Assembly: GCA_028693705.1 (NCBI GenBank)
Contig: JAQUUX010000004.1
Span: forward strand, 779 to 64,778
DNA from: Lachnospiraceae bacterium
GTDB taxonomy: Bacteria > Bacillota > Clostridia > Lachnospirales > Lachnospiraceae
DNA length: 64,000 nt
Direction: 5' to 3'
In this document: positions 4,747-64,000 of the stretch, piece after piece
Numbering within the stretch: the stretch's first letter is position 1
Layout: each line of letters opens with the position of its first letter
Notes under the pieces: model-generated
Told to the model about the DNA's origin: nothing
Databases searched by the model: none
Seen by the model: only the letters and a program-made list of their open reading frames with translations
Translations under genes and position numbers: made by a program

Positions 4747-5794
<1,048 letters not shown>

Positions 5795-5796
<2 letters not shown>

Positions 5797-6424
5797 ACTG
5801 CAGTTTAGTAACTCAAAAAAATAATGTTTATAATGAGACGGCAATGGTGTGGGTGTGTATCCTTCCATTGCCGTTTACACGTATAAGAGCCGCTACATCA
5901 TTCCACGAAGATACTTGCCCTTTAACGCTAACGGCCCCAATCGCCATCCTGGCTCTAAGGGGCCTTTCAAGCCATTTATGGCTTTGGCATCCATGCCCGG
6001 AATAGCTGGGTTACGACTGGAATGATTAGCGGCTCTAATACGTGCGCTCAGGCAATAGAAGAATACACACCCGCACCACTGCCTGTTCATTACATTCGCT
6101 ATTCTTTTCAAGTTGCCAATCTACAGTTAGTCCAGTCTGTAGCTGAGGCCAGGCTATTGCAAATTTTCAGTTGCCGTAACTGGGGTCTTTGCGCCCCAGG
6201 GCACCGCAAACGGTAGCTTGAAGGAAATAAACATTGCCGTAAAACGAGGTTCAGCCGTGTATCGTATGCGAACAAGCACTGTAAACACGTCTGTACTTAG
6301 TTCGCGTCTTGTGCGAACTTATGTACAGCTACGTGTTTACCGTAGTGAGAACGGGCTTGTGAGCATATGATACACGGCTGAACCGTCACTTTACATCAAT
6401 CTTTATTCCTTTAAACTGCAGTTT
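5795..6424 (+). repeat. Copy A of a non-coding, palindrome-rich repeat element of about 630 bp, unclassified. It could be a structured RNA gene or a non-autonomous mobile element.
   Basis: Bounded by the perfect palindrome AAACTGCAGTTT at 5795-5806 and 6413-6424. Full-length homolog at 51177-51787 and a partial inverted homolog at 9302-9570. Giant imperfect hairpins at 5846-6077 and about 6209-6424. No credible ORF. Confidence 0.9.
6248..6384 (+). repeat. 137-nt imperfect hairpin, the near-invariant core of the repeat element (copy A)
   Basis: GGTTCAGCCGTGTATCGTATGC (6248-6269) pairs with GCATATGATACACGGCTGAACC (6363-6384). Inner stem GTAAACACGT / ACGTGTTTAC, with the apex around TCTTG near 6308. 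The same asymmetric bulges occur in all three copies. Confidence 0.85.
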
Positions 6425-7341
6425 TATTGCTGATATTGATTCATAAAGGTAAGAAATTCTTCCACAGCAGGATTCTGGCTGATCTTGGATAAGGCAGCAA
6501 ATCCGATCTTACGGGAAGGAATGGCTTCATCCAGGTTATATTCCAGAAGTTCACCGGAGGCCAGTTCTTTTTCTACAAATTCTCTGATGACACAGGCAAT
6601 TCCCAGATCTGTTTTAGCAAAATCAATCAAAAGATCCATGGTGGAAAGTTCAATGATATTTTCGGGGTGGAGAAGCGGTAGCCTTAAATGCTGCTGAACG
6701 AACTGACGGGACATATTTTGCTCATCCAATAACAAAAAGGTTGCATTTTCTTCAATACTGCCGGCAGTGGAGCCCATTCGTTCCATCAGATTATGATAGT
6801 ATGCAGGAGAAGTTACAAACATATCATGAATTTCCCGAAGAGGTGTAAATGCGATGCCGGCTGCATTTCCGGCAGCTTCTTCCGGTTCACCGATTAAACC
6901 AATGTCGGCTTTTCCATTTTTCAGTTTTTCAATTGTACCATAGCTGTTTTGACAGGAAATTGTGATTTTAATGTGAGGATGATTTTTGATAAATTCTTTT
7001 AACATGGGAAGTAATACAAATTTGCAAAGTGTAGAACTGACGCCAATGGTGATTTCGCCCATTCCAAGCTCATTCCTGCGATTTAAAAGATCCTCGCCAT
7101 ATTGCAGGGATCTTAGCGCTTCGTTTACCTGCTGAAATAGTATTTCACCTTCGGCAGTCAGCTTCACGCCTCTGGAATTGCGGTAAAATAGTTTTGTATC
7201 CAGTGCACTTTCCAATTTGCTGATAGATTTTGAAACTGCCGGCTGGCTGATGAAAAGTTCCTTTGCTGCTGCAGATATATTTTTTGTAGCGGCAACTTTA
7301 TAAAACACTTGATATAAGTTCAGGTTATCAAAAGCTTTCAT
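6424..7341 (-). CDS. LysR-family transcriptional regulator
   Basis: 305 aa. N-terminal wHTH (ISAAAKELFISQPAVSKSISKLE) plus a LysR substrate-binding domain. Divergent from leuCD and convergent with ilvC. Confidence 0.85.
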   Translation of the reverse strand: MKAFDNLNLYQVFYKVAATKNISAAAKELFISQPAVSKSISKLESALDTKLFYRNSRGVKLTAEGEILFQQVNEALRSLQYGEDLLNRRNELGMGEITIGVSSTLCKFVLLPMLKEFIKNHPHIKITISCQNSYGTIEKLKNGKADIGLIGEPEEAAGNAAGIAFTPLREIHDMFVTSPAYYHNLMERMGSTAGSIEENATFLLLDEQNMSRQFVQQHLRLPLLHPENIIELSTMDLLIDFAKTDLGIACVIREFVEKELASGELLEYNLDEAIPSRKIGFAALSKISQNPAVEEFLTFMNQYQQ

Positions 7342-8814: not shown

Positions 8815-9303
8815 ATGAAAGCAGCAAAAGGTAGTGTTTTTAAATATGGAGATAATGTGGATACAGATGTTATTATTCCTGCGAGATATCTGAACTCTTC
8901 AGATCCTGCAGAATTAGCAGAGCACTGTATGGAAGATATTGATAAAGATTTTATTCATTCAGTAAAAAAAGGAGACTTAATCGTAGCAGAGAAAAACTTC
9001 GGCTGCGGTTCCTCTAGAGAGCATGCGCCGATTGCTATTAAAGCAGCCGGTGTGAGCTGTGTTATTGCAGAAACTTTTGCCAGAATTTTTTATCGTAACT
9101 CTATTAATATAGGTCTTCCGATCATTGAATGTCCGGAAGCTGCAAAAGCAATTCAGAACGGTGATGAAGTAGAAGTGGATTTTGATTCCGGAATGATCAC
9201 TGATGTAACAACCGGTAAACAGTTTAAAGGACAGGCATTTCCGCCTTTTATGCAGAAAATTATTGATGCAGAGGGATTGATTAACTACATTAATATGAAA
9301 TAA
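8815..9303 (+). CDS. leuD: 3-isopropylmalate dehydratase small subunit
   Basis: 162 aa. Aconitase swivel domain ([27 protein letters not shown]). Directly follows leuC. Confidence 0.9.
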
Positions 9304-9570
9304 ACTGCAGGTTAAAGAAATAAGGATTGACGTAAAGTGACGGTTCAGCCGTGTATCATATGCTCACAAGCCCGTTTTCACTACGGTAAACACGTAGCTG
9401 TACATAAGTTCGCACAAGACGCGAACTAAGTACAGACGTGTTTACAGTGCTTGTTCGCATACGATACACGGCTGAACCTCGTTTTACGGCAATATTTATT
9501 TTCTTTAAGCTACAGTTTGTGGTGCCCTGGGGCGCAAAGACCTCAATTACGGCAGGTGAAAAATTGCAAC
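9302..9570 (-). repeat. Copy C of the repeat element: the 3' palindromic module plus about 70 nt, inverted relative to copies A and B
   Basis: This is the reverse complement of about 6150-6424. The core (9343-9479) differs from copy A at 1 position. It starts as AAACTGCAGGTT, overlapping the leuD TAA (9301-9303). Homology ends near 9569. Confidence 0.9.
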
Positions 9571-9654
9571 AGTTTGCAGAACTTGAAAATACTTTCCCAA
9601 ATATGTTACCATACCTTTATTGTTCAGAAAGTGGAGAAAAAACAATTGAAACAT

Positions 9655-10038
9655 ATGTTCGATCGTGCTAAAATTAAAAAAACAGATATCATTCTCATAA
9701 TTTTAATTCTCATCATAGCTGCCTGTTCCTTTTTATGGTACAGATATCAAGGAACACCAGGTGCTGCAGTAGAGGTTTATTTGGATGGTGCTTTAACTGC
9801 CACATATCCTTTGGAACAAAGTGCAGAGTATGAATTGACGGGCGCACATGATGGACATAATCATCTGGTCATTGCAGATGGTAAAGCGTCCATTACAGAT
9901 GCAGATTGTCCGGATAAGCTATGTGTAAAACAAAGGGCTATTTCAAAAAACGGAGAAACTATATGTTGCCTGCCGCATAAGCTGGTGATAAAAATTTCCG
10001 GTGGTATGGAAAATGAATTAGATGCTGTAACCAATTAA
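9655..10038 (+). CDS. NusG domain II-containing protein (DUF1312 family)
   Basis: N-terminal TM segment (IILIILILIIAACSF), then the pattern VYLDG...ITDADCPDKLCVKQRAISKNGETICCLPHKLVIKI. The ORF-track start at 9451 lies inside repeat copy C, so I prefer the ATG at 9655. The TTG at 9646 is also possible. Confidence 0.7.
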   Translation: MFDRAKIKKTDIILIILILIIAACSFLWYRYQGTPGAAVEVYLDGALTATYPLEQSAEYELTGAHDGHNHLVIADGKASITDADCPDKLCVKQRAISKNGETICCLPHKLVIKISGGMENELDAVTN

Positions 10039-50345: not shown

Positions 50346-50889
50346 TATTTATAAAGTGCATGACGGTACCTATCTTCATGGATACGAACTTTCTTATCAG
50401 ATAGAACCGGATCGAATGAAAACCTATGAAATTGTAAGTCGAAACGCTTCTCTTCGAACACCGGAGGATTTGGGTAGCCAGGTGGCAGGCGTTTCCATGG
50501 TGGTATTCCAGAATGACAGGCTACTATTATTACAGGAATTTCGCATGGGCATTAACCGAACCATTTATAATCTATGCGCCGGTATGTGTGAACCTGGTGA
50601 AAGCATGGAAGATTGCATGAAACGGGAATTGAAGGAAGAAACAGGTCTTGACCTGACAGAGATAAAAGTGCTGTTACCGCCGTCTTATGCTGCAGTTGCC
50701 ATTTCTGATATGCAGACACAGATTGCAATTGTAGAAGCTGCCGGTACACCAACGAAGCAAAAACAGCTTCATGAAGACATCATTCCGAAATTTTATAATC
50801 GGGAAGAAGTGGCTGAACTGCTACGCACACAAAGCTTTAGTTCAAGGGCACAGATCATGGCGTATTTTTATGTACAGCATATGCTGTAA
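50332..50889 (+). CDS. NUDIX hydrolase
   Basis: Nudix box GMCEPGESMEDCMKRELKEETG. GTG start overlapping the rng end. Confidence 0.8.
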   Translation: MKLTDIYKVHDGTYLHGYELSYQIEPDRMKTYEIVSRNASLRTPEDLGSQVAGVSMVVFQNDRLLLLQEFRMGINRTIYNLCAGMCEPGESMEDCMKRELKEETGLDLTEIKVLLPPSYAAVAISDMQTQIAIVEAAGTPTKQKQLHEDIIPKFYNREEVAELLRTQSFSSRAQIMAYFYVQHML

Positions 50890-50902
50890 AAAGGAGCTGA
50901 AT

Positions 50903-51172
50903 ATGGAAAAAAACAAGGCTTATTATATATGTACAGTACTTGACTGGTGCCTCTGTCTTATGGACGTGTTCATACTAGGTGCATTGGTTTCTGTGATTCT
51001 GCCTTTTCTAAATCAGATTATGACACAGTGGATTGCACTTTCCATATTGCGGAATTTTCTAAACATGATTTGCGTTATTATCATAGCAGCAAGTCTGATT
51101 TTACTTTTTAATCAAATTTCTATTTTAATTTCAAAGAAGTATTGGACTGGTATCTATGGTGGGACTAAGTGA
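50903..51172 (+). CDS. Small hypothetical membrane protein (89 aa)
   Basis: AAGGAG RBS before the ATG at 50903. Two or three hydrophobic helices. The ORF-track start at 50771 overlaps the NUDIX gene and is unlikely. Confidence 0.55.
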   Translation: MEKNKAYYICTVLDWCLCLMDVFILGALVSVILPFLNQIMTQWIALSILRNFLNMICVIIIAASLILLFNQISILISKKYWTGIYGGTK

Positions 51173-51176
51173 ATTA

Positions 51177-51787
51177 AAACTGCAGTTTAGAAACTTGCAA
51201 ATAATAATTATAAAGAGACGGCAATGGTGCGGGTGTGTATCCTTCCATTGCCGTTTACACGTATAAGACCTTCTACATCATTCCATAAAGGTATTCGGTT
51301 GCTTCCGCTAACGGAATCCAATCGCCATCCTGGCTCGGGATTCCTTTCCGGGCATCCATGCCCGGAATAGCTGTTTTGCAGCTGTAATGATTAGAAGGTC
51401 TAATACGTGTGCTCAGGCGATGGAAGGATACACACCCGTACCACTGCCTGTTCGTTACATTTGTTATTCTTTTAAAGTTGCCAATCTGCAGTTGCCTCGG
51501 TCTGTAGCCAAGGCCAGACTATTGCAACTATTCATTTGCCGTAACTGGGGTCTATGCTTCATCGGCACCACAAACTGCAGCTTAAAGAAAATGAATATTG
51601 CGTAAAACGAGGTTCAGCCGTGTATCGTATGCGAACAAGCACTGTAAACACGTCTGTACTTAGTTCGCGTCTTGTGCGAACTTATGTACAGCTACGTGTT
51701 TACCGTAGTGAGAACGGGCTTGAGAGCATATGATACACGGCTGAACCGTCACTTTACATCAATCTTTATTTCTTTAAACTGCTGAAC
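51177..51787 (+). repeat. Copy B of the palindrome-rich repeat element (full length)
   Basis: Starts with AAACTGCAGTTT (51177-51188) and ends with a degenerate AAACTGCTGAAC (51776-51787). Collinear with copy A. The 3' 177 nt differ from A at 2 positions. The 5' part is much more diverged, with indels. Confidence 0.9.
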
Positions 51788-51794
51788 AAAAAGC

Positions 51795-51823
51795 TTGACA
51801 CCCCGATAAGTGGATGATATTAT
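51795..51823 (+). promoter_or_regulatory. Candidate sigma-A promoter of the rplU-prp-rpmA operon: TTGACA, 17-nt spacer, TATTAT
   Basis: -35 TTGACA at 51795-51800 and -10 TATTAT at 51818-51823. It begins 8 nt after the end of repeat copy B. Confidence 0.6.
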
Positions 51824-52897: not shown

Positions 52898-53007
52898 TTG
52901 TAATAAAGCTAACAATACCGAAGCATGTATTGCTTAAACCGGCATGGTTATAATAAAAATGCCTGTTTCGTTATTGTTAGCTTGCAACATTCAGAATGGA
53001 GAATCAT

Positions 53008-63829: not shown

Positions 63830-63937
63830 ATAAAGTTGGCACCCTTAATTCAAAGATTATGTATATAATAAAGAGAATAAGGAGGTGCTGACAAATGGCA
63901 CGTAATCAACGTCACTACTGTTTTTTGCAAGTACTTT

Positions 63938-64000
63938 TTGGACAAAGTTGCAAAACATTTTTGGACATTGTTGCATGTCCAAATTGGACAAAGTTGCAAA
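63938..64000 (+). repeat. Three direct repeats at 23-nt spacing, cut by the window edge
   Basis: TTGGACAAAGTTGCAAA at 63938-63954 and again at 63984-64000. Variant TTGGACATTGTTGCA at 63961-63975. Confidence 0.7.

Follow-up and report, generated by a model that had tools for sequence, protein, structure and literature searches.

We analyzed a stretch of 64,000 nucleotides from the genome of a gut Lachnospiraceae bacterium (GenBank assembly GCA_028693705.1, contig JAQUUX010000004.1, positions 779 to 64,778), referred to here as the window. It is ordinary core chromosome, with genes for amino-acid biosynthesis, ruvAB, gyrase or topoisomerase, ribosomal proteins, and lexA, and it contains three copies (A, B, and C) of a repeat that, although of interest, is of a rather common bacterial type. 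Copy A fills the gap between two converging genes, and its right-hand part, in a composite of about 630 nt, is a long imperfect hairpin module. Together with the relatives in a second genome, the metagenome-assembled genome (MAG) JAQUYA01, our copy set comprises at least six hairpin modules in two genomes, three in the 64 kb of the window and three in two contigs (L009 and L078) of JAQUYA01:

5794-6426, plus strand: copy A, full composite, filling the whole interval from the ilvC stop codon (5794-5796) to that of a LysR-type gene (6424-6426, minus strand)
51176-51784, plus strand: copy B, full composite, starting 3-4 nt past the TGA of ORF 50771-51172, with a degenerate right terminus (CTGCTG)
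9301-9576, minus strand: copy C, 5'-truncated, consisting of a partial linker and the hairpin module, with a right end that supplies, or overlaps with, the stop codon of leuD (9301-9303)
L078:1-563, minus strand: S78 (JAQUYA01), truncated by the contig end
L009:1222-1527: S09 (JAQUYA01)
L009:970-1196, minus strand: S09x, a diverged module found with an nhmmer profile of the hairpin module (E = 8e-22), inverted and about 115 nt upstream of S09

The scan of genome contigs with a 16-mer gave mostly chance matches; L009 and L078 were the real relatives among the matches listed. No further copies appeared in metagenomes scanned with a stem-gap-stem pattern and with a 21-mer, in viral scans, or in blastn searches of plasmids and phages. 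When the core was translated in both frames, the products had no homologues in protein databases, and exact look-ups of the ilvC, L21, leuD, L27, and P0001 proteins returned no conspecific contigs. On L009, the repeat forms an array (929-1532) that consists, in order, of an inverted linker piece, S09x, a 25-nt spacer, a linker, and the canonical hairpin module S09. The array, which has two hairpin modules and lacks the TwoAYGGAY module described below, lies directly downstream of a gene pair coding for a Phd/YefM-type antitoxin and a toxin-like protein. A solo fragment of 71 nt follows the TGA of a Cupin_2 gene on L078 (stop codon L078:5846-5848). Besides, the flank of S78 (L078:590-650) and the interior of S09x (L009:1040-1075) have in common the motif CTCGCTTTCG[C/T]TAC[A/G]GGAA, which was not found in the window with up to 3 mismatches and may be another repeat module of the JAQUYA01 genome.

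The full copies are made up of three parts, namely, a module matching the TwoAYGGAY RNA motif, a 79-nt linker, and the hairpin module:

5796-6128, minus strand: TwoAYGGAY module of copy A, a giant hairpin closing on AAACTGCAG / CTACAGTT, with P1 arms at 5815-5872 and 6051-6108
5872-6050, minus strand: Rfam TwoAYGGAY (RF01731) in copy A, 70.4 bits (gathering score, 43), match to the full-length model
51252-51415, minus strand: Rfam TwoAYGGAY in copy B, 98.6 bits (gathering score, 43)
6129-6207, plus strand: linker ("seg2") of copy A, with the small hairpins CTACAG..CTGTAG and CTGGGG..CCCCAG
6208-6424, plus strand: hairpin module of copy A, an imperfect stem of about 87 bp with a side hairpin on the 3' arm and the termini AAACGGTAG...CTGCAGTTT
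51572-51784, plus strand: hairpin module of copy B (core 51611-51747)
9302-9518, minus strand: hairpin module of copy C (core 9342-9478)

The left module of copies A and B, which the initial annotation had left as an anonymous 5' module, is thus TwoAYGGAY on the opposite strand. In copy A, the whole of 5796-6128 folds as a single giant hairpin (-170 kcal/mol; z = -13.4) with P1 arms of 58 nt that are 78% complementary, and the covariance model alignment gives the loops CAUG...UG and GCCA-GGAUGG, the second being one base short, so that both terminal AYGGAY loops and the long closing P1 are present. The left module of S78 matches as well (68 bits, L078:307-485). The resemblance of the left modules of A, B, and S78 to the motif thus extends over the full model, with 68 to 99 bits and a very long P1. 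The loop context ACAUGGAUGU (e.g., 51352-51361, minus strand) resembles RUACARGGAUGU, which we take to be the CsrA SELEX consensus, with two sites per RNA. Loop contexts of the ACAUGGAUGU type also occur in the Psychromonas ingrahamii rows of the supplement to Weinberg et al. (2010), and in that species TwoAYGGAY is likewise multi-copy and found among other repeated modules. The original description of TwoAYGGAY already noted a very large closing P1 (Weinberg et al. 2010, PMC2864571), and in 2025 the motif was still termed "relatively unexplored." The hairpin core, in contrast, lies outside the motif: a permissive cmscan of 5700-6500 (E up to 10) gave no TwoAYGGAY match to the module at 6208-6424. 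The hairpin belongs to no Rfam family (cmscan gave chance-level miRNA or sucA matches below threshold), and the short motifs of the element did not occur in those supplementary alignments of Weinberg 2010 that we searched. The linker is weakly conserved, with 12 to 24% differences distributed as a mosaic between copies.

The hairpin first delimited at 6248-6384 proved to be real, although this is not its full extent, since the stem reaches 6208-6424 (about 215 nt). The core folds with -87 kcal/mol (z of about -9.9) and the full module with about -105 kcal/mol, on either strand in both cases. Neither fold energy nor the counts of G.U versus A.C pairs discriminated between the strands of the hairpin, which has no G.U strand bias, and no promoter-like or terminator-like sites belonging to the element were found on either strand. 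Two stretches of the module are distinguished in copy A:

6238-6397, plus strand: near-invariant block of the five close copies (A, B, C, S78, and S09), symmetric in helix depth, as delimited in the segment tests
6248-6384, plus strand: hairpin core of the initial annotation, with a basal stem of 22 bp, a tandem GA/GA loop, a junction, a side hairpin (6340-6354), and apical stems

In order to verify the contrast between core and flanks, the differences were counted again. Between A (6241-6417) and B (51604-51780), only 2 of 177 nt differ (6360 T/A and 6408 C/T), in exact agreement with the earlier count. Identity does collapse right outside this block, with ungapped mismatches at 103 of 141 positions to the left and 18 of 23 to the right, the high value on the left being due to indels. 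The core of copy C has a single difference from A in 137 nt, as had been stated, although its coordinates are 9342-9478 and not 9343-9479. This difference (6349 G/A) falls in the loop of the side hairpin, i.e., the "CCGTTCTCACTACG" bulge, and therefore the claim that the bulges are preserved in every copy is almost, but not strictly, true.

For the segment tests, we used a gapped alignment of the five close copies, i.e., the three in the window plus S78 and S09. The mosaic pattern proposed from three copies was reproduced: divergence was 0.6 to 3.4% in the block (6238-6397) versus 8 to 20% in the flanks (6134-6237 and 6398-6424); for A versus B and A versus C, flank divergence came to 14 to 20%. 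Within genomes, the core diverged by 0.6 to 1.9%, versus 2.5 to 3.4% between genomes. The contrast between block and flank was significant in 9 of the 10 pairs (one-sided Fisher test, p of ca. 6.9e-8 to 6.4e-3), and therefore it is not sampling noise, the explanation that uniform divergence over more copies would have favored. The only nonsignificant pair was C versus S78, which is also the closest pair across genomes; here the core (4/119) was not better kept than the adjacent arm (0/29), and the flank as a whole had 7/88 differences.

The block corresponds to the inner 72 bp or so of the stem of about 87 bp, in a module of about 215 nt, and it ends at equal helical depth on both arms, position 6238 pairing with approximately 6394. 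The first variable sites outside it are 6237/6232 and 6398. On both sides, identity thus stops some 30 nt inside the termini of the module, whose own outer arms are 7 to 21% diverged among the close copies. These edges bear on one of the explanations offered at first, namely, that a younger hairpin unit of about 160 to 215 nt, recently active, entered older and more diverged repeats or took over their centre. The hairpin module does have AAACTGYAG termini of its own, like the TwoAYGGAY module, and module combinations vary (the L009 array has two hairpins and no TwoAYGGAY, and copy C lacks TwoAYGGAY too). However, the block has no ends of its own: it stops inside the module termini, within diverged outer arms, at depth-symmetric edges that carry no repeats or duplications, and the five close copies share both the orientation relative to the linker and the left context. 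Solo cores without flanks were absent among the matches listed, a small sample, as well as from the viral and metagenome scans. We consider nesting very improbable.

The diverged paralogue S09x provided a deeper comparison. Its fold (-105.5 kcal/mol; z = -10.2) has the same asymmetries, keeping the termini, the stem of about 87 bp, the side hairpin on the same arm, the tandem GA loop, and the apical hairpin. Identity to the close copies varies along the module, with 81% at the termini, about 50% in the outer arms, 55% in the basal stem, 85% at the junction, 73 to 85% at the apex, and 66 to 69% over the whole core. With S09x included, double-sided changes affect 21 of the 87 pairs, while 96.3% of the cells remain paired; slid controls gave 1 or 2 such pairs, and none of 500 shuffles reached the observed value. 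RNAalifold independently gave 23 compensatory pairs. These 21 to 23 compensatory pairs relative to S09x show that the predicted hairpin fold, asymmetries included, is maintained by selection, acting on it as RNA or as single-stranded DNA. Its biochemical role could be that of an RNA 3'-end or processing structure or of a single-stranded DNA recognition element.

Constraint on the fold and constraint on the sequence have to be told apart here. Judged by this alignment, the core sequence is not intrinsically invariant, being 66 to 69% identical in S09x, a value that comes from one paralogue whose core divergence may be inflated by a change of function or partner. The ratio of outer-arm to core substitution rates (Jukes-Cantor) was about 14 among the close copies and about 1.8 between subfamilies, a change of ca. 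8-fold. The diverged S09x core and this shift in the ratio together indicate that constraint alone does not explain the identity. Thus, only with respect to the fold is the strong functional constraint proposed at the outset supported.

The strongest form of that proposal deserves to be set out in full. A trans-acting protein might recognize the central 160 nt in a sequence-specific manner, in the form of RNA or single-stranded DNA, so that purifying selection alone would keep the sequence, bulges included, from changing, in which case the differences between genomes and the divergent S09x would reflect coevolution with different partner proteins. Several results fit: the fold and its asymmetries are kept across subfamilies, junction (85%) and termini (81%) are well preserved between them, the core diverges less than the flanks also when copies from different genomes are paired, and unpaired core positions are better conserved between subfamilies than paired ones (25/30 versus 76/117), with p = 0.076. 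Yet selection alone leaves the rate ratio, ca. 8-fold different in shallow and deep comparisons, and the C-S78 pair, whose core is no better kept than its flank, to be accounted for, and it would require the same changes at three apical sites to have arisen in parallel in copies whose flanks had split before the two genomes did. On balance, we regard this explanation as unlikely.

These three apical sites (6299, 6319, and 6322) separate the copies by genome, A, B, and C on one side and S78 and S09 on the other, and 6299/6319 form a compensatory pair (A-T to G-C). S09x shows the apical state of its own genome, JAQUYA01, and therefore the state found in the window is derived, although all three window copies have it. 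The outer arm tells another story, since position 6220 and the compensatory pair 6224/6408 group A with S09 versus B, C, and S78. Site 6349, in turn, groups C with S09. Altogether, 13 informative sites give 8 splits, while a tree of five taxa allows 2, and S78 is pieced together from tracts resembling A, B, or C. Ongoing gene conversion, which was among the first suggestions, is the best fit to these per-genome apical states, cross-genome flank haplotypes, and incompatible splits. The genome-specific signal consists of three sites within 24 nt and, since two of these sites form a compensatory pair, it may represent a single event.

Our preferred reading is therefore a composite one, with gene conversion driving the concerted evolution of a modular, MITE-like repeat family whose structure is also under selection, and we would give it an even chance. 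Short-tract gene conversion between dispersed copies would repeatedly overwrite the palindrome's middle part, and variants that disrupt the fold would be removed by selection. Uniform conversion alone would not lower diversity only at the centre; either a higher central rate or additional selection is needed. We infer that breaks or nicks at the hairpin tip, repaired from another copy, would generate an identical block that grows from the centre outward and is symmetric on the two arms, and SbcCD-type processing of extruded palindromes would be one possible route to such breaks. A fold that is kept by compensatory changes and a sequence that is homogenized make it feasible to separate structural selection from concerted evolution in the same repeat.

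All 18 module-arm ends, from both module types, read (A)AA-CTGYAG-nTT inward, the arms starting with AAACTGYAG. In addition, a terminal palindrome recurs in the window:

5794-5807, also 6412-6425, 9301-9314, 51176-51189, and 51571-51584: terminal palindrome TAAACTGCAGTTTA (14 nt)

With up to 2 mismatches, TAAACTGCAGTTTA was found in the window only at element ends (5 matches versus 0.48 expected). Allowing AAA or AAAA before CTGCAG, TA precedes 6 of the 7 outer ends, and the ends lie on or next to stop codons; TT at the right end of A and AA at the left end of B are the exceptions to TA. In ilvC, leuD, and the LysR-type gene, the stop codon overlaps the terminal TAA, and that of the Cupin_2 gene on L078 coincides with a terminal TGA. 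Compared with orthologues, neither ilvC nor leuD is shortened or extended (...INN-stop in ilvC and ...INxK-stop in leuD), which places the start of the element precisely on the native stop codon. Such ends could mislead gene callers. In this regard, the ORF at 9451-10038, a gene with a NusG_II domain, runs about 65 codons into copy C, with its Pfam match beginning at residue 82, and its start might be misannotated.

The copies are found at different, nonorthologous intergenic loci in the two genomes and carry no genes, and their orientation relative to the neighboring genes differs. Related genomes, found through LeuC homologues and about 75% identical in DNA, have the same gene order without the element at the syntenic loci (L088-L090). 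No transposase, integrase, or reverse transcriptase was found among the approximately 55 ORFs of the window or the 10 ORFs of L009 and L078. Terminal inverted repeats in small, noncoding units dispersed at nonorthologous sites are the hallmarks of MITEs, and the element fits, by these features, a MITE-like, nonautonomous, modular intergenic repeat of Lachnospiraceae. A TA-targeting transposase acting in trans would mobilize it, as IS630 does with RUP or Correia elements, TA being the putative target duplication, and an element that begins with A and enters a stop codon at its TA would regenerate the stop as TAA.

An alternative without mobility would be that the copies are paralogous genes for a structured noncoding RNA of about 600 nt, transcribed from the minus strand, with a cellular function and with the hairpin as the most constrained domain. 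TwoAYGGAY is indeed an Rfam family with covariation support, the hairpin is located about 200 nt 5' of TwoAYGGAY on the minus strand in A, B, and S78, and the fold z-scores are extreme. Genes of this kind, however, are difficult to reconcile with the lack of promoter-like or terminator-like sites of the element's own on either strand, with a hairpin free of G.U strand bias, or with orientations that vary relative to the neighbors. Truncated and solo fragments, module arrays of other composition, and ends placed on stop codons with a common terminal palindrome speak against it as well, and we find it quite improbable.

The preferred MITE-like reading can be put into perspective by comparison with known repeats. 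RUP of Streptococcus pneumoniae, Correia (CREE) of Neisseria, and ERIC are also small, noncoding, intergenic, and dispersed (PMC3184786), and they share terminal inverted repeats, TA at most outer ends, a long hairpin if transcribed, and the lack of a transposase of their own. The likeness is one of features, and the element described here is larger (215 to 630 nt) and modular, and its conservation peaks at the palindrome centre and not at the termini. Another Firmicutes repeat, bcr1 (group A repeats of the Bacillus cereus group), is mobile-like, transcribed, and intergenic, as far as the account in PMC3184786 goes (after Okstad 2004 and Kristoffersen 2011); it has a closing stem and two stem-loops kept by compensatory changes but is described there as ca. 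155 bp long, flanked by 5-bp direct repeats, and restricted to the B. cereus group, and thus differs in termini and size. Mosaic palindromic modules that are intergenic and located at the 3' ends of genes are also typical of BIME/REP, REPIN-RAYT, and pneumococcal BOX. Concerted evolution is well known in these families, and mobilization in trans has its precedent in RUP, which is mobilized by IS630-Spn1.

Some better-defined classes were considered and set aside. REPs are 20 to 40 nt long, while the modules here are 5 to 10 times longer (215 to 335 nt) and have complex junctions; some element termini read CTGTAG and hence contain GTAG, inconsistently, and no RAYT or Y1/HUH transposase was present among the scanned ORFs, so that the element is not a REP, BIME, or REPIN-RAYT. 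Integron attC sites and the attP(+) of CTX phage are imperfect hairpins of about 60 to 150 nt in which the stem sequence varies but bulges and extrahelical bases are kept for their function. Here, the stem base (GTTCAGC / GCTGAAC) is one base off the GTTRRRY of attC (RYYYAAC...GTTRRRY), the window has no integrase and no cassette array, and the copies are single and dispersed at gene ends. A retron msr-msd was discarded, with no reverse transcriptase in the window or next to any copy, as were a single-strand origin, a single-stranded DNA promoter, and an omega or bridge RNA, for which there was neither a partner gene in the 64 kb nor an Rfam match.

To our knowledge, and leaving aside a 2026 preprint on the motif, neither termini shared by TwoAYGGAY with a second module type nor stop-codon ends have been described before. 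A bolder version of the interpretation would make TwoAYGGAY and the hairpin alternative "cargo" domains of one nonautonomous family with AAACTGYAG termini, which would insert at the TA of stop codons with regeneration of the stop and whose centres would be kept identical by hairpin-triggered break repair. We think this full combination decidedly unlikely. If true, TwoAYGGAY RNA would be a mobile-element module, and the family would provide a natural system for palindrome-centred gene conversion. TwoAYGGAY has been without an assigned function since 2010, and finding it as a module of a transposon-like repeat, beside an unannotated hairpin, offers a testable idea. For annotation purposes, blocks of 215 to 630 nt like these should be masked as repeats and not taken as conserved regulatory sites.

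Three other features of the window were recorded. The rplU operon has a strong sigma-70-like promoter at 51795-51823 (TTGACA, a 17-nt spacer, TATTAT, and TG), 13 nt past the right end of copy B. An unrelated hairpin is found between rpmA and obg (52906-52983), with 26-nt arms that are 85% complementary and a 26-nt loop. Finally, at the edge of the window, downstream of the lexA region, there is a 33-nt direct repeat, TTTTTGCAAGTAC...GGACAAAGTTGCAAA (63922-64000), with 82% identity and a spacing of 46.
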